Shown in pieces: positions 34,383-42,010 of a stretch of 64,000 nucleotides of DNA; the stretch's first letter is position 1; each line of letters begins with the position of its first letter. The stretch is taken from assembly GCA_965220745.1 (NCBI GenBank), contig CBDCQT010000013.1, positions 256,001 to 320,000 of the forward strand, read 5' to 3'. Made by a program: the position numbers and the translations under genes. Under the pieces are notes generated by a model. That model worked only from the letters and a program-made list of their open reading frames with translations. It ran no database searches and was not told the DNA's origin. The DNA comes from Alphaproteobacteria bacterium (GTDB lineage: Bacteria > Pseudomonadota > Alphaproteobacteria > UBA828).

Positions 34383-34781
34383 ATGACGCTAACGCTCGAC
34401 GAAGCCAACCGCGTTGCCGAGGGCGCAATGGAACACGCGCGCAGTATCCATATCCTGGTCTGCGTCGCGGTCTGCGATGCCGGCGGGAAGCTGGTTTCGT
34501 TCCAGCGCATGGATGGCGCGATCTGGGCCGCCGTCTACGGCAGCCAGGGCAAGGCCGCCGCGTCCGCCGCCTTCGGCCGGCCGAGCGGCGACCTCACCGA
34601 GAGGGCGGACCATCCCACCTTCCGCGGCATCGTCGCGAAAGACGGCGGCCACATGATCCTGGGCCGCGGCGCCGTGCCCATCGTGCGCGACGGCCAGGTG
34701 ATCGGCGCGTGCGGAGTCGGCGGCGGCACCGGCGAGGAGGACGAGGATTGCGCGCGCGTCGGCGTCGCGCGAATTGAGTAA
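34383..34781 (+). CDS. GlcG/HbpS family heme-binding protein
   Basis: VAVCDAGG...RMDGA, GKA..SAAF, GAVPI...IGACGVGGG..D. Confidence 0.9.
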   Translation: MTLTLDEANRVAEGAMEHARSIHILVCVAVCDAGGKLVSFQRMDGAIWAAVYGSQGKAAASAAFGRPSGDLTERADHPTFRGIVAKDGGHMILGRGAVPIVRDGQVIGACGVGGGTGEEDEDCARVGVARIE

Positions 34782-34827
34782 GGGGATAGGGCGGCACCGC
34801 CGTCGCACGCATTCAGTAAGTAGGGTC

Positions 34828-34960
34828 AGCGCGCGGGACGCTATCGCGCCGCCCGGCCTGACTCTTCTTGTTCCCTCAGACGCCGGGGCGCTGCCTCATT
34901 CATTTCCCTCAGACGCCGGGCGCTCGCTCCGCTCGCTTGGCTTACGCGCTACGCGCGCGG
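34828..34960 (+). repeat. Structured ~100-bp repeat, copy 1 (with internal duplication)
   Basis: Near-identical to 37136-37236; TTCCCTCAGACGCCGGG occurs at 34871 and 34904. Confidence 0.85.
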
Positions 34961-35079
34961 AGCTTTGCGACTAATGCGGTTCTGTTTCCGGCGACATCTC
35001 CATTGGTAAGTCGAAGCACCGTAATATCGAGCTTGGCGCAATCTTCGTCTGACCTGCCTCCGTCGATCCGCGTCCAGAA
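34942..35079 (-). pseudogene. Possible DUF559/Vsr-like endonuclease C-terminal remnant
   Basis: Minus frame reads FWTRIDGGRSDEDCAKLDITVLRLTNGDVAGNRTALVAKLRA, similar to the DUF559 'E.DG...(G)I.VLR.TN..V' C-terminus; in-frame TGA upstream and no start codon. Confidence 0.35.
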
Positions 35080-35428
35080 GGCCCACACGCGGAAACCGAA
35101 GGCAACTCAATAGCCGATCTGTGAAGCCTAGAGACTGACGGGCGATCGCCGAGGCCGCCATTGTCTTGAGTGCGCCTCTGATTCCCCAAGAATTCTTCGG
35201 AAACTAAACCTCTAGGAGCCAGTTTCCTGATTACATGATCCGGTGATTGGAGCGAAGCTCACGCCATGAGGGCACCCGAGCCGCGGAAAAGGTCCACAGC
35301 TTTTCCCCAGCGGAAAGCGGGAGCACCGGGGAAAGTGATTTCCACAGCGATCCGATCGCGGGGATACCGTCAAGTCCGACAGTTCCCCCGTTGCACAGCA
35401 CGTTGTCCAAAGGCAATGTGGGAATGGG

Positions 35429-35505
35429 TGGTGGGCCCGGCGAGACTCGAACTCGCGACCTCAACCTTGGGATGGATGCGCTCTATCCGGCTGAGCTACG
35501 GACCC
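35429..35505 (-). tRNA. Atypical tRNA or tRNA-like gene, anticodon CCC (Gly) on an Arg-type body; may be a pseudo-tRNA
   Basis: GGGTCCG TA GCTC AGCCGGATA GAGC G CATCC ATCCCAA GGTTG AGGTC GCGAG TTCGAGT CTCGC CGGGCCC A CCA; full cloverleaf with encoded CCA. Confidence 0.85.
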
Positions 35506-35512
35506 ACCACCC

Positions 35513-35542
35513 ACCATATCCACCTCGCGCTCGGCGCGTCAA
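35513..35542 (-). promoter_or_regulatory. Sigma70-like promoter for the tRNA-like gene
   Basis: TTGACG (35542-35537), 18-nt spacer, TATGGT (35518-35513); 7 nt separate it from G1. Confidence 0.5.
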
Positions 35543-35766
35543 CGCTACCCCTAGCGGTAATCCCCGTGGATAGCGGGGAAAGCATGGTGAATTTCGGGGA
35601 AAGCACTAAATCTTCGGCTAGATGACCGGCGCGTTGGCTAGTTGGGCGTACAAGTCCCGGAAAAAGTGGGGGTGCCCGGCGCCGGGCCGCTGCGCGGCCC
35701 GGTCCCAATTTGGCAAACACCTCGACTGTTGCCGCGCGGCGCGCATCGGCTCTCGCTCCCCTTTCT

Positions 35767-35786
35767 CGTCATGCCCGGACTTGATC
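35767..35786 (+). repeat. Left half of an alphaproteobacterial REP/RIME-like palindrome interrupted by the IS
   Basis: CGTCATGCCCGGACTTGATC abutting the IS end. Confidence 0.75.
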
Positions 35787-37045
35787 CATTGCTGTCCGGT
35801 TTAGATTTTGGCGAAGGGGATTTGGAGTTGGTCATGGGTTTGTGGCTCATCGGGCGGCGGTTCGAAGAGGTCGGTGAGCGCCCGGCGCTGGAAGGTCGTC
35901 TTGGCGACGAGGCGGGCGATGGCCTGGAGGCCGAGCCGGGTTCCGGTTCCGATCTGCGCCAGCCGCAGCAGCAGGTAGGCGATCAGCGCGGTGACGATCT
36001 GGATGCGCACGGCATTCTCGCTGGTGCCGAGGAAGTGCCGGATCTTCAGGTTCTGCTTGATCCACTTGAAGAACAGCTCGACCTGCCAGCGCCGCTTGTA
36101 GAGCGCCGCGATCTCTTCGGCTGGGGCATTGAGGTCGTTGCTGACCAGCATGATCTCCCTGCCGCTGTCGATGCGCACGGTGACCAGACGCACCGGCTTG
36201 TCGAAGGGGTTCTGGCGGCTCGCCGCCAGGCGCTTCGACAGCAAGGCGACGCGGTCGGCCACGACCGGGCCGTCCGGCTTGACCGGGCGGGTCTCGATCA
36301 GGCTTGTGGGCGAGTTCTTCTTCAGCCGGGTGACGAAGCGGCTCCCCTTGGCGTCGATGTCTGCCCAGAAGGCGAAGTCGTAATAGCCCTTGTCGAAGAC
36401 GTAAGTCGCGCCGGGCTCGATGGGGAGGCGCTTGGCCGGCGTGATGTCGTTGACCCTGGCCGAGGTCACGGCAAAGCAAACGGGCGCATCTGCGTCCGGG
36501 TCGTAGACCACGTGCAGCTTGACGGCACCGTCGACCTCCCAGCTCTCGATCCGCTTGCCAACCAGGACCCGGGTCGCATCGACGAGGCGCAGCATCTCCC
36601 GCCCGCGCTGGCCCGCAGATGCGCCCAGCCGGGCGACCAGGGCCTCGAGTACGTCCTCGAACAGGGCCGCCGGACGTACCCGGTTGGCATCCGCGAGCGT
36701 AGACCGCCGCACCGGCGCCAGACCCAGATGGGCATGGACGCCCGGAAAGCGTTCCAGCGCACCGACCGCCTCGCGCAACGAGCGCGAGCCCGACAGCTGG
36801 GCGAACACCATCGCCTGGAACTGGCTCCACGACGAAAGGCGCCGGACCCGGTAGTCCGCTCCGTGGCGCTCTGCCAGCTTGTCGAAGCGCCAGCGCGGAA
36901 ACGCCTTCATCAGTCCGCCGAAAATCGTATCCTGGTAGGGCATGGCTTGGGCTCCATTGCGAGCTTCGATTCAACAGGTCTTGCAAAAACCAAGTTGAAT
37001 CCAAGCCATGCACCTTGTCTACCCAAGCTAAACCGGACAGCAATG
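35787..37045 (-). mobile_element. IS4-family insertion sequence (~1.26 kb)
   Basis: Perfect terminal inverted repeats CATTGCTGTCCGGTTTAG / CTAAACCGGACAGCAATG; imperfect 9-bp flanks GACTTGATC / GGCTTGACC. Confidence 0.92.
35801..36943 (-). CDS. IS4-family DDE transposase
   Basis: QLSGSRSLRE, RSTLADAN, VDAT, FDKGY, YKRRWQVELFFKWIKQNL (Y-R-E-K signature). Confidence 0.95.
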   Translation of the reverse strand: MPYQDTIFGGLMKAFPRWRFDKLAERHGADYRVRRLSSWSQFQAMVFAQLSGSRSLREAVGALERFPGVHAHLGLAPVRRSTLADANRVRPAALFEDVLEALVARLGASAGQRGREMLRLVDATRVLVGKRIESWEVDGAVKLHVVYDPDADAPVCFAVTSARVNDITPAKRLPIEPGATYVFDKGYYDFAFWADIDAKGSRFVTRLKKNSPTSLIETRPVKPDGPVVADRVALLSKRLAASRQNPFDKPVRLVTVRIDSGREIMLVSNDLNAPAEEIAALYKRRWQVELFFKWIKQNLKIRHFLGTSENAVRIQIVTALIAYLLLRLAQIGTGTRLGLQAIARLVAKTTFQRRALTDLFEPPPDEPQTHDQLQIPFAKI

Positions 37046-37127
37046 GGCTTGACCCGGCCATCCACGTTTTCGTTTCTTTACAGTGTGTTGTGGAGAGAGA
37101 TGCCCGGATCAAGTCCGGGCATGACGA
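37046..37127. repeat. Right part of the RIME-like element (REP half, spacer, inverted REP)
   Basis: GGCTTGACCCGGCCATCCACG...GATGCCCGGATCAAGTCCGGGCATGACGA. Confidence 0.75.
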
Positions 37128-37135
37128 TGAAAGGA

Positions 37136-37236
37136 AGCGCGCGGGACGCTATCGCGCCGTCCGGGCCTGACTCTTTCAGTTCCCTCAGACGCCGGGCGCT
37201 CGCTCCGTTCGCTTGGCTTACGCGCTACGCGCGCGG
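37136..37236 (+). repeat. Structured ~100-bp repeat, copy 2
   Basis: AGCGCGCGGGACGCTATCGCGCCG...GCTTGGCTTACGCGCTACGCGCGCGG shared with 34828-34960. Confidence 0.85.
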
Positions 37237-37304
37237 CGCATGCGCGCCGTCCGGGCCTGCGGCCCGGTTCGCCTCAATGGCAAACTCCTCGTCTGACGCC
37301 CCGG

Positions 37305-37514
37305 ACCATGGTGCGGTGCACAGCGCCCGTCGGGTGCGCCACTATTGCGCCCGTACGGTGCGGGAACGATGAGGCCGCCGCAGGCAGAGGCGGGAATTAG
37401 TTGGGAGTGCCCGGCGCCGGGGCACTGCGAAGCGGTTCCGCTCGCGCGGCTCCAGGTCTTGGAGCTTGCGGCGAGCAACGCGGAATCCCACCAAATCCCG
37501 GCGAGGCTCGCTTC
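37305..37514 (+). repeat. Dispersed intergenic element, copy C
   Basis: Head homologous to the reverse complement of 10504-10550; TCCC at 37486 and 37496; TCCCGGCGAGGCTCGCTTC resembles TCCCGGCGTGTCTCGCTTC at 29772. Confidence 0.5.
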
Positions 37515-37594
37515 TCTTTTGGGGCCCGCCGCCCCAGGCGGAGCGAGCGCGGCGGCGCGGCAGGGTTCGGACCCCGGGTCTCGGGCGCGGCCGC

Positions 37595-39571: not shown

Positions 39572-39976
39572 ATGGCAGCGAGTACGCCACCCGGTAAATT
39601 CCGCTCGTATTACGCCAAATTCTTTCGTGATTTTCCTAATTTTGGCATCAGACTTACACGACATGCGCGTGACCGAATGGAAGAACGAGGTATTCGGTTG
39701 CCACAGATTAGAACGGTCTTGATGACCGGGGCCTTAGTGCATGTCGAGCCCGATATTCGAACGGGGCTGGACAAGTACCGGGTAGCCGGCGGCGATGCAG
39801 ACGGCCGGCGCCTGGAGGTCGTGGCCAATCTCGACGAATCCGGCCCAGGCCGCGTCATCGTCATCACTGTGATCGATACGCCAGACGCCGGTGGTAGTGG
39901 ACGCCGGGCCAAATGCAGAGGAACGGGAGACAGGGCAACGGAGACTGATCAAGGTTCGGTCTCTGAAACGCCCTAG
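39572..39976 (+). CDS. DUF4258 family putative toxin
   Basis: LTRHARDRMEERGI...VL.TG...KYRV.G.D.DGR.LEVV...IITV pattern; AAGGAG RBS. Confidence 0.8.
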   Translation: MAASTPPGKFRSYYAKFFRDFPNFGIRLTRHARDRMEERGIRLPQIRTVLMTGALVHVEPDIRTGLDKYRVAGGDADGRRLEVVANLDESGPGRVIVITVIDTPDAGGSGRRAKCRGTGDRATETDQGSVSETP

Positions 39977-39988
39977 ACCAAAGCAGAC

Positions 39989-40483
39989 ATGCAGACGAAG
40001 AAAGAACACGACGCCACGGTCGAGATGGGACTACCGGTGACCCTGATTGACACCGTGCTGGAGGACGATGACGGCAACTTGGAAATCCCTAACCTGGACA
40101 TGCTGCTGGCAACCGTTGCCGTGGCTCGTGTGCTTGCGCCCGTGCAAATGGTGGGGGCGGAACTCCGTTTCCTACGCCACGTCCTGCATCTGACGGGAAC
40201 TGAATTTGCTCGTGCCATCGATCTCAGCGACAAGACCGTCGTTTCACGCTGGGAGAATGGCAAGACGCGCCCTGGCGGCTATACGGAAAAGATCATCCGG
40301 CAGCTCATCCTGAACGTGCTGGGCCACCGTGCGCCCGGCATCGAGGTTCCGGAAAACGCAATTCCCGGTATGAGGATTCGCCAACGCGAAGCTTCGGAAG
40401 GCCCGCTCCCGATGGCGTTTGCCTTCAAGAGCCGCTCGGGGTCGGAGGGTCAGCCCATAGACTGTTATGCCGAGGCGGCGTGA
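39989..40483 (+). CDS. XRE-family HTH antitoxin (MqsA/HigA-like)
   Basis: GAELRFLRHVL.LTGTEFARAI...VVSRWENGK HTH; follows DUF4258. Confidence 0.8.
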   Translation: MQTKKEHDATVEMGLPVTLIDTVLEDDDGNLEIPNLDMLLATVAVARVLAPVQMVGAELRFLRHVLHLTGTEFARAIDLSDKTVVSRWENGKTRPGGYTEKIIRQLILNVLGHRAPGIEVPENAIPGMRIRQREASEGPLPMAFAFKSRSGSEGQPIDCYAEAA

Positions 40484-40894: not shown

Positions 40895-42010
40895 TCAGAC
40901 GAAGATGTCGTCCGGCAGGATCGCGGAGACCACGGTGTTGGGCACGGCGGCAATGCCGTCCACGGTCACGTCGACGCCCACGCTCGCGATCACGTAGGCC
41001 TGCATCCGCGTGAAGCCGCGCTCGTGCACCAGGTGGTCGATCACGTTGAGCAGCGCGTTCTTCGTCGCGAGATTGATGTCCTCGGCGCGGTTCGTGCCGT
41101 CGTCCTCGATGCAGAGCCCGGTGGTGGCGTAGTAGCCGCCGCGCTCCAGCGCGTGCCCTACCGGTGCGGTATCCTTGCGCGAATAGTGGATGTCTCGGAT
41201 GCCGCGCTCGGCGGCGAGGCCCTTGCGCAGATCGAAGCGCACGCGCAGCGTCGGGTCGGTCTCGATGGCCGTGCCGCAGCACTCGCTGCTGCCCTGGGCG
41301 AAGTGGCCGTCGCCCGCCGAGAACAGCGCACCTTCGGTGTAGACCGGGAAGTAGACCGTGGTTCCGGCGGTCATCTGCTTGGTGTCGAAATTGCCACCAT
41401 GCTCGCGGGGCGGCATGGTGCGCAGAGCCTCGCCGTCGATGATGGGGTTGCGTGTGATCGCGCCCTCGGCCGAGGGCGGCAGTGCCATACCGCCGGCGGC
41501 GAGAAGGTCGTTCTCCCGCGCCGCGATGCGCGCCAGCAGCTCGTGCGAGGGGGCGACCCCCATCGCCCCCATGAACGGTGCGCCGGGGATTCGCACGCCC
41601 GGTATCTCCTCGCAGACGGCGCCGTCTGCGGTCTGCTCCCACTTGGCGAGGAAGGGCTCGGTGAAGACATCGCGCAGGTAGCCGAAGCCCGGAATCGCAA
41701 GAGTGAAGCCGAAGTCGTCGGGGTTCACGTCCAGGATTTCGACGACCAGCAGATCGCCCGGCTCCGCGTCCTTGACGTAGATCGGGCCGGTCAGCGGATG
41801 CACCAGGTTGAGGTCCAGCCGCAGGAGATCGTCCAGGGTCGAGTCACGCGAAATCTGCTGGTCGCCGCCGTCCCGCGTCTCCATGAGCACCTCGTCGCCC
41901 GGCTCGATGGTGAGGATGGGCGGGATGTCGGGATGCCAGCGGTTGTGGCCGGTCCCCGGCTCGTCGGAGAGCGTCTTGGACTGGTCGATACGAATCTCGT
42001 GTGCGGCCAT
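40895..42010 (-). CDS. Acetamidase/formamidase family protein
   Basis: HNRWHPDIPP, HPLTGPI, GGNFD, GDGHFAQGSSE. Confidence 0.92.
   Translation of the reverse strand: MAAHEIRIDQSKTLSDEPGTGHNRWHPDIPPILTIEPGDEVLMETRDGGDQQISRDSTLDDLLRLDLNLVHPLTGPIYVKDAEPGDLLVVEILDVNPDDFGFTLAIPGFGYLRDVFTEPFLAKWEQTADGAVCEEIPGVRIPGAPFMGAMGVAPSHELLARIAARENDLLAAGGMALPPSAEGAITRNPIIDGEALRTMPPREHGGNFDTKQMTAGTTVYFPVYTEGALFSAGDGHFAQGSSECCGTAIETDPTLRVRFDLRKGLAAERGIRDIHYSRKDTAPVGHALERGGYYATTGLCIEDDGTNRAEDINLATKNALLNVIDHLVHERGFTRMQAYVIASVGVDVTVDGIAAVPNTVVSAILPDDIFV

Follow-up and report, generated by a model that had tools for sequence, protein, structure and literature searches.

A tRNA-Arg-type gene with a glycine (CCC) anticodon in mobile DNA of an alphaproteobacterium, probably an orphan of horizontal origin

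Bacterial tRNAs whose body identity and anticodon belong to different amino acids are represented by tRNA-ProX of Streptomyces and Kitasatospora, mistranslating families that are conserved across genera and usually stand beside a dedicated prolyl-tRNA synthetase (ProRS) isoform, according to the available part of the source (PMC10404621). A different point of reference is given by the tRNA fragments and duplicates at the borders of integrated elements. Here we describe a tRNA-like gene, referred to below as the CCC gene, in 64,000 nucleotides of a genome listed as Alphaproteobacteria bacterium (assembly GCA_965220745.1, contig CBDCQT010000013.1, positions 256,001 to 320,000); this whole stretch is the window, and coordinates are counted from its first letter. 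As far as the available part of the source goes, tRNA-ProX is the closest known functional analogue (PMC10404621): the CCC gene likewise joins the body of one amino acid to the anticodon of another, and is likewise extra to the canonical set. It lacks the hallmarks of that system as described there (PMC10404621), being a single instance with a mismatched anticodon stem, no conservation and no partner synthetase. Like the tRNA remnants at element borders, the CCC gene is Arg-type and adjoins mobile DNA, but unlike duplicates at attachment sites it is full-length, its 3′ half is intact, and it has neither an integrase nearby nor a direct-repeat partner. We favour, at a probability of roughly 55%, a horizontally acquired orphan tRNA of tRNA-Arg(CCG/CCU) type that lies stranded in mobile DNA, where it is probably silent or only weakly active.

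The gene is the one tRNA that ARAGORN reports in the window:

35429-35505, minus strand: tRNA-like gene of 77 nt, with an Arg-type D arm, anticodon CCC and encoded CCA (ARAGORN, Rfam RF00005)

Its score against the Rfam tRNA family (RF00005) is 58.5 bits, compared with a gathering score of 29, which makes it a member of that family. The acceptor stem (GGGUCCG/CGGGCCC) consists of G1:C72, G2:C71, G3:C70, U4·G69 and three further pairs, and is followed by discriminator A73 and the encoded CCA. The D loop (AGCCGGAUA) has 9 nt and includes A20, the variable loop is AGGUC, and a perfect T arm carries the T loop UUCGAGU. Positions engaged in tertiary pairs are all standard (U8, A14, G15:C48, G18, G19 and T54-A58). 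The anticodon stem, CAUCC/GGUUG, has a central U29·U41 mismatch, and the anticodon loop reads A32-U33-CCC-A37-A38. An earlier note on this DNA had listed the 77-nt cloverleaf, CCA, A20, A73, G2:C71, U4·G69, the loop and the U29·U41 mismatch, and each was verified in the sequence. The minimum-free-energy structure of the 77-mer is not the cloverleaf (–34.1 versus –29.0 kcal/mol), but this is not diagnostic, as it also applies to 13 of the 45 tRNA calls of the genome, canonical Arg-CCT and Arg-TCT included. Contigs from four runs reproduce positions 34964-35735 with 0 differences, so the CCC anticodon is not a one-off assembly slip; the runs all derive from a single sample, from which the genome itself may have come. 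In a near-identity index, the carrier stretch was matched in four runs of one sample only, with no RNA run among the matches. No RNA family other than tRNA was found between 34700 and 35800 at E values up to 1, apart from a chance plastid match of 20.9 bits.

Identity elements place the body of the gene with arginine. The bacterial Arg identity set is given as A20, C35, U/G36 and A/G73, and the Gly set as including U73, G1:C72, C2:G71, G3:C70, C35 and C36, in the available part of PMC9976931. Compared with these sets as given there (PMC9976931), the CCC gene has A20, C35 and A73 of the Arg set but C36 in place of U/G36; it has C35, C36, G1:C72 and G3:C70 of the Gly set but not U73 or C2:G71. 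All four Arg tRNAs of the genome have G73, unlike the A73 of the CCC gene; A73 is also found in 18 of 52 sampled canonical Arg tRNAs. The three Gly tRNAs of the genome have U73 and G1-C2-G3. The CCC anticodon is one substitution from CCG or CCU. Isotype was further evaluated with home-made nhmmer models of 20 isotypes, not tRNAscan-SE 2, which were trained mostly on phage-contig tRNAs with the genome's own tRNAs excluded; they assign the annotated isotype to 41 of 43 own tRNAs. The CCC gene scores 46.7 bits on the Arg profile, 41.4 on Val, 30.9 on Thr and 25.6 on Gly. True Arg tRNAs reach 60.7–67.5 bits on the Arg profile, leaving the CCC gene 14 bits under the lowest, and the three true Gly tRNAs reach 53.8–65.1 bits on the Gly profile. 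The CCC gene is Arg-like and clearly not Gly-like, yet it is no typical Arg tRNA. The Arg body claimed in the earlier note therefore stands, with a D arm identical at 19 of 19 positions to own Arg-CCT and Arg-TCT and the Arg profile scoring highest, as does its remark that U73 and C2:G71 are missing, in keeping with the low rank of the Gly profile.

The best non-self matches are canonical alphaproteobacterial tRNA-Arg(CCG) genes, which are highly conserved and identical to the CCC gene at 62–64 of 77 positions (83%). The two share the 77-nt length, C35, the encoded CCA, the 9-nt D loop with A20 and U20a, and the 5-nt variable loop AGGUC. Unlike tRNA-Arg(CCG), the CCC gene has C36 rather than G, and so reads a Gly codon; it also has the U29·U41 mismatch and the acceptor stem GGGUCCG, and it lies outside the conserved tRNA-Arg locus, without orthologues. 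Position 32 is A in the CCC gene and a pyrimidine in 50 of the 52 sampled Arg tRNAs. Among the genome's own tRNAs, Arg-TCT is the most similar (62/77), followed by Arg-CCG and Ile-GAT (59/77 each), with Gly-GCC at 56/77. The CCC gene is no recent copy of any tRNA found. Relative to the closest Arg-CCG, there are 13 differences, which affect 6 of 17 positions in the anticodon arm and 7 of 60 elsewhere, a concentration that bears out the anticodon-arm damage described earlier. Five stem pairs are changed and four of these still pair: 3:70 and 28:42 through double changes, 4:69 as U·G, and 50:64 in improved form. The fifth, 29:41, is changed on both sides and has lost its pairing.

No orthologue of the CCC gene was found in 40 relatives (20 of them same-genus), in 48 same-order genomes or in 400 same-class genomes. 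The class-level tallies include genomes G268 (unpublished) and G069, and one locus of ten, L073, is from G268; the result holds without it, and neither genome is needed for any conclusion. Conservation of the CCC anticodon, A20, A73 and the flanking inverted repeat in related genomes, by which the earlier note would have judged the gene, was thus not seen. Plasmid and phage collections gave no match to the flanks, and the tRNA part alone matched at no more than 85% identity; when the two tRNA halves were used as exact patterns against viral contigs, each gave 0 matches.

The host is fully supplied with canonical counterparts. The genome (13 contigs, 4.82 Mb) has Arg-ACG, Arg-CCG, Arg-CCT, Arg-TCT, Gly-GCC, Gly-TCC and Gly-CCC genes elsewhere, among them the separate Gly-CCC and Arg-CCT genes whose presence had been proposed as a check. 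The CCC gene is therefore redundant, given a canonical Gly-CCC and all four Arg isoacceptors. There is one gene for arginyl-tRNA synthetase (ArgRS), 97 kb from the CCC gene, and one glyQ, on another contig; no extra or dedicated ArgRS or glycyl-tRNA synthetase (GlyRS) was found in the genome. GGG accounts for 17.6% of Gly codons and 16.4 per 1000 codons in 1753 long open reading frames (ORFs) with high G+C at third codon positions (GC3). Because GGG is this frequent, an efficient Arg-inserting GGG reader would damage most proteins and be very costly. The neighbours of the CCC gene are hydantoinase/oxoprolinase genes, an insertion sequence (IS) and a DUF4258/helix-turn-helix (HTH) pair 4 kb off, and no aminoacyl-transferase or nuclease gene was found near it. 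The earlier suggestion of a maintained non-canonical RNA accordingly found no backing in conservation, a dedicated synthetase, or an aminoacyl-transferase or nuclease neighbour.

The location of the CCC gene bears on how it came to be there, and is composed as follows:

34769-37582: 2.8-kb insertion between a HbpS/GlcG-like gene and the 3′ end of a hydantoinase-B gene
34828-34963 and 37136-37267: dispersed repeats like repetitive extragenic palindromic (REP) sequences, ~70-135 nt, with several dozen matches across the genome's contigs
34964-35681: orphan DNA of 718 bp carrying the tRNA, present nowhere else in the genome
35059-35117, plus strand: 59-nt remnant of a small ORF of 57 codons, corresponding to its 3′ end
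35626-35659: second shared block, 34 nt
35754-37139, minus strand: IS element with 34-nt terminal inverted repeats

The HbpS/GlcG-like gene ends near 34770 and the hydantoinase-B gene has its 3′ end at 37583. Both are found in nine same-genus genomes at 87–95% identity, where the gap between them is 13–37 bp in six and 283–1310 bp in three, compared with 2.8 kb here. The insertion is made up of REP-like repeats, the 718 bp of orphan DNA, an IS4-type IS and further REP-like repeats. The orphan DNA has a GC content of ~55–64%, versus 65–77% in the flanking genes, and contains no convincing ORF; its three ORFs have no Pfam match. The IS starts 249 bp upstream of the CCC gene, encodes a transposase of 380 aa (ORF 35801-36943; DDE_Tnp_1/DUF4372 in Pfam) and has five further genomic copies at 92–99.8% identity. 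With these copies and 61 matches to the tyrosine-recombinase family (PF00589), the genome abounds in mobile DNA; none of the PF00589 matches falls within the window, and no partial duplicate of the CCC tRNA occurs elsewhere in the genome. The ORF remnant and the 34-nt block recur in two same-genus genomes, where they lie 312 bp apart around a small gene that occupies the place of the tRNA here. In one of them (G009), this region is crowded with transposase genes and includes an intact version of the remnant gene. Since the canonical genes are kept and the CCC gene is within an insertion, it does not represent the in-place decay of a resident tRNA-Arg. The decaying tRNA-Arg(CCT) considered in the earlier note can accordingly be set aside, as all canonical Arg and Gly genes are present and same-genus genomes lack the insertion.

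To place this gene among similar ones, one genome for each of 185,579 species was scanned for an Arg-type D arm with UCCCA in the anticodon position downstream; beyond the 440-odd genomes covered by BLAST, so exact a pattern overlooks any orthologue whose anticodon or D arm differs. The scan returned at least 50 stretches. Among the matches listed, 42 are 5′ halves of tRNA-Arg broken off in the anticodon loop, and 15 of these 42 stretches also hold an intact tRNA-Arg (13 CCT, 2 CCG) within 8 kb. Such a pairing is the signature of elements integrated into tRNA-Arg, and the half-genes point to what looks like a widespread element family that integrates in the anticodon loop of tRNA-Arg(CCU) and differs from its target at position 36. 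Full-length Arg-like CCC tRNAs number eight among the genome matches listed, and a stricter pattern that includes the T arm added full-length genes in 10 metagenome records and one viral contig. Parsing gave 19 full-length look-alikes, the CCC gene included, of which eight have an anticodon-stem mismatch and three have acceptor-stem mismatches; the anticodon-stem mismatch compares with 9 of 52 canonical Arg tRNAs, a weak contrast drawn from a biased set of mostly phage and island loci. In three of four look-alike neighbourhoods examined, an IS1 transposase, a DDE transposase or an Abi-like gene adjoins the tRNA. Arg-type CCC tRNAs are rare, sporadic, often defective and tied to mobile DNA. A keyword search of the literature, which was not exhaustive, brought up no naturally occurring bacterial tRNA that combines Arg identity with a Gly anticodon.

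Several individual loci from these scans may be recorded. The half-gene loci L021-L070 span many phyla, and read ..UCC|CA(A).. where the intact gene has CCU. Near-identical Arg-like CCC copies with paired stems occur at L041, L082, L087 and L090, on Bryobacterales-type contigs and on a viral contig of 56.8 kb; three of these four loci depart from the tRNA sequence near position 71, like an attachment-site border. Contigs of Rickettsiales metagenome-assembled genomes (MAGs; L036:3968-4171, L059 and L068) have partial Arg CCC copies that are cut in the T stem and lie just 5′ of an intact tRNA-Arg(CCT), with two such copies in tandem at L036. The Arg-like CCC tRNA most like the CCC gene is at L054:1595-3125, in a Pelagibius MAG, and also has U4·G69 and a purine at position 32. 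It lies between terminator-like sequences (a hairpin plus a T run), and adjoins an Abi_2 (abortive infection) gene of low GC3 and a gene for a ComM-like Mg-chelatase.

If the preferred explanation of a stranded orphan is correct, the tRNA would have arrived within the 2.8-kb block of mobile and junk DNA, and would now be a relic under no maintaining selection in this lineage, decoding poorly if it is not silent. Should it be transcribed, the single ArgRS would be expected to charge it to some degree because A20, C35 and A73 are intact, and GlyRS would be expected to reject it because U73 and C2:G71 are absent; any activity would then amount to low-level insertion of Arg at GGG. The immediate flanks of the gene are less easily reconciled with such an origin, and comprise the following:

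35513-35542, minus strand: sigma-70-like site TTGACG-N18-TATGGT, ending 7 nt 5′ of G1, with 9 of 12 consensus matches
35499-35513: upstream arm of an inverted repeat (15 nt, 93% complementary), formed by the 5′ acceptor strand and 8 leader bases
35425-35439: downstream arm of the inverted repeat, formed by the 3′ acceptor strand, A73, CCA and 4 trailer bases
35566-35605, minus strand: two direct repeats of ~20 nt, 21 nt apart, each containing CTTTCCCCG, at –98 and –77 from G1
35302-35335: downstream of the tRNA, third CTTTCCCCG on the tRNA strand together with one CTTTCC and one inverted TTTCCCC
35182-35203: palindrome TTCCCCAAGAATTCTTCGGAAA, built of the half-motif of the TTTCC(CC) array

The sigma-70-like site is the sole one in the 1.2 kb from 34700 to 35900, where shuffled sequences give 0.4 ± 0.7. 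A similar site occurs within 150 nt upstream of just 4 of the 44 other tRNA calls of the genome, its second hexamer ending 15–45 nt before the tRNA, and the consensus is for this reason a poor guide to promoters in this organism. The promoter claimed in the earlier note can therefore be upheld as a site, with its N18 spacing and 7-nt distance, but as a promoter it is weakened by a match to the consensus of only 9 in 12 and by the limited value of that consensus in this host. The bases TGGGTGGT (35513-35506) are exactly complementary to ACCACCCA (35432-35425), such that the acceptor helix is lengthened by 8 Watson–Crick pairs (10 with G·U) that cover the CCA, whereas none of the 46 other ARAGORN calls scored in the genome exceeds 3 bp. 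The 8-bp extension reported earlier is thus confirmed, with eight leader bases complementing A73, CCA and four trailer bases. Imperfect pairing runs on for ~30 nt into the flanks, and 7 of 300 shuffles fold equally well. None of the other 18 parsed CCC look-alikes has a leader/trailer extension of more than 3 pairs. Beyond the helix, the 718 bp hold 12 TTTCC/GGAAA pentamers (16.7 per kb versus 1.03 per kb genome-wide), a number reached by 0 of 1116 GC-matched genome windows. CTTTCCCCG has 17 copies genome-wide, and three of these are within 270 bp of the tRNA, all on the tRNA strand, with the third at +171.

These and other features count against a stranded relic. The body of the tRNA is flawless: no pair of the D and T arms is broken, and the CCA and the positions of tertiary pairs are likewise intact. 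Because four of the five changed stem pairs still pair, the lineage evolved as a working tRNA until recently, and the clustering of changes in the anticodon arm is not predicted by random decay. At position 32, a purine is present in 4 of the 19 Arg-like CCC tRNAs and in 2 of the 52 canonical Arg tRNAs of these loci, a hint that the feature recurs. The promoter-like site is placed exactly at the 5′ end of the tRNA, the leader/trailer helix of 8–10 bp is seen at no other tRNA of the genome, and the tRNA is framed by three of the 17 genomic CTTTCCCCG copies and by the highest TTTCC density of the genome. A plain relic explains neither the motif array, nor the palindromic flank, nor the leader/trailer helix; the array and palindromic flanks are compatible with a regulated promoter or with a DNA site that has a tRNA-like core and is bound by protein.

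These two options correspond to different rival explanations. According to the promoter option, the gene would be a working tRNA of dual identity that is charged by ArgRS and reads GGG as Arg, at a low level or when switched on via a TTTCCCC-bound factor. Such a tRNA would have the intact body observed here, with A20, C35 and A73 of the Arg set (PMC9976931, available part) and without the Gly determinants U73 and C2:G71; it would also have use for the promoter-like site at its 5′ end and for direct repeats whose positions are two helical turns apart, and it might show changes concentrated in the anticodon arm and a purine 32 shared with look-alikes. Streptomyces tRNA-ProX, as described in the available part of PMC10404621, sets a precedent. 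Nonetheless, we consider this explanation unlikely, as C36 stands where the Arg set, as given in the part of PMC9976931 available, has U/G36. The Arg profile score is 14 bits below that of the lowest true Arg tRNA, the single instance shows no conservation and has no dedicated synthetase of the kind that ProRSx represents beside tRNA-ProX, and the gene is embedded in IS and REP junk in a genome where frequent GGG makes the cost high. In addition, the U29·U41 and A32·A38 oppositions are expected to weaken decoding. A conditionally expressed natural missense tRNA that inserts Arg at GGG, charged by ArgRS via A20, C35 and A73, would turn this weakening to advantage, although we regard it as rather improbable: purine 32 and the weakened anticodon stem would tune down strong CCC:GGG decoding, and a factor on the TTTCCCC repeat array would control transcription. 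As transcription would start at or next to G1, the CCA-masking leader would never be made, and purine 32 in unrelated Arg-like CCC tRNAs (4/19) would mark a scattered class on mobile DNA.

The other option is that the tRNA sequence matters as DNA, as the core of a protein-bound site (attP-like, for example) of a lost mobile element. The TTTCC(CC) copies would then be putative arm-type or iteron-type binding sites, and the palindromic flanks would belong to the site. This would account for CTTTCCCCG copies that flank the tRNA in one shared orientation (near –136, –115, +132 and +150 from the anticodon loop), for a pentamer count above that of all 1116 GC-matched windows, and for an imperfect palindrome of ~140 bp centred on the tRNA. 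Moreover, tRNA-Arg genes are common integration targets, as illustrated by the 42 tRNA-Arg halves among the 50 matches listed, and the genome has its 61 tyrosine-recombinase matches. This explanation is unlikely in view of the absence of an integrase match inside the window and of a partial tRNA duplicate anywhere in the genome; further, the anticodon loop required for crossover occurs in no other tRNA of the genome, and a complete, perfectly paired cloverleaf with CCA is not needed for such a site. A search of viral contigs for the pair CTTTCCCCG-N8-14-CTTTCCCCG gave 21 stretches, all of them unrelated tandem repeats. Finally, an ordinary extra Gly tRNA that is charged by GlyRS and supplements GGG decoding would explain the CCC anticodon with C35 and C36, the G1:C72 and G3:C70 pairs, and an anticodon arm identical to that of own Gly-GCC at 14 of 17 positions. 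The last similarity is not diagnostic, since viral contigs have this anticodon stem in tRNAs for Thr, Arg, Val and further amino acids. With A73 in place of U73 and G2:C71 in place of C2:G71 (relative to the Gly set in the available part of PMC9976931), an Arg-type D loop, and a Gly profile score of 25.6 bits against the 53.8–65.1 of true Gly tRNAs, this last explanation is very improbable.

Two hybrid origins were also tried and dropped. A mosaic of the genome's own tRNAs could be assembled from an Ile2-like CAT acceptor stem with position 73 (14/15), an Arg D arm and a Gly-GCC anticodon arm (14/17). However, the stem CATCC/GGNTG is common, occurring in at least 117 viral stretches (100 Thr-GGT, 3 Arg-CCG, 3 Val, 2 Ile, 1 Gly and 1 Ala), and the longest exact tract in common with any own tRNA is 22 nt. 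For a hybrid formed by recombination in the anticodon loop, both non-Watson–Crick pairs do fall in the stems that span the two halves, but as these stems hold 12 of the 21 stem pairs, their placement is not informative.

If the CCC gene is a relic, it offers a clean case in which a second 'tRNA-Gly(CCC)' of an annotation is an Arg-type passenger on mobile DNA, and the combination of an Arg body with CCC would be mostly a by-product of integration into tRNA-Arg genes; only the motif array and the surrounding palindrome would stay strange. An active gene would instead provide the first case of a natural bacterial tRNA that inserts Arg at a Gly codon, and a second, independent dedicated mistranslation machinery after the proline-based Streptomyces tRNAs.

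Three minor observations concern the surroundings and the wider tRNA complement. One group of the REP-like matches adjoins the canonical tRNA-Arg(CCG) on contig C3. The interval that separates the hydantoinase-B gene from an ORF at 40895-42010 holds, at 39572-40483, small genes for a DUF4258 protein (134 aa) and, after it, an HTH protein (164 aa), in a layout that resembles a toxin–antitoxin pair. Elsewhere in the genome, a 91-nt tRNA call (G000:C10:520540-520630) has a Ser-type acceptor stem (GGAGGCG...CGCCUCC, with G73 and CCA) and a long variable arm; the anticodon loop has an irregular form, and the call carries the ARAGORN label 'tRNA-??? (ta)'.

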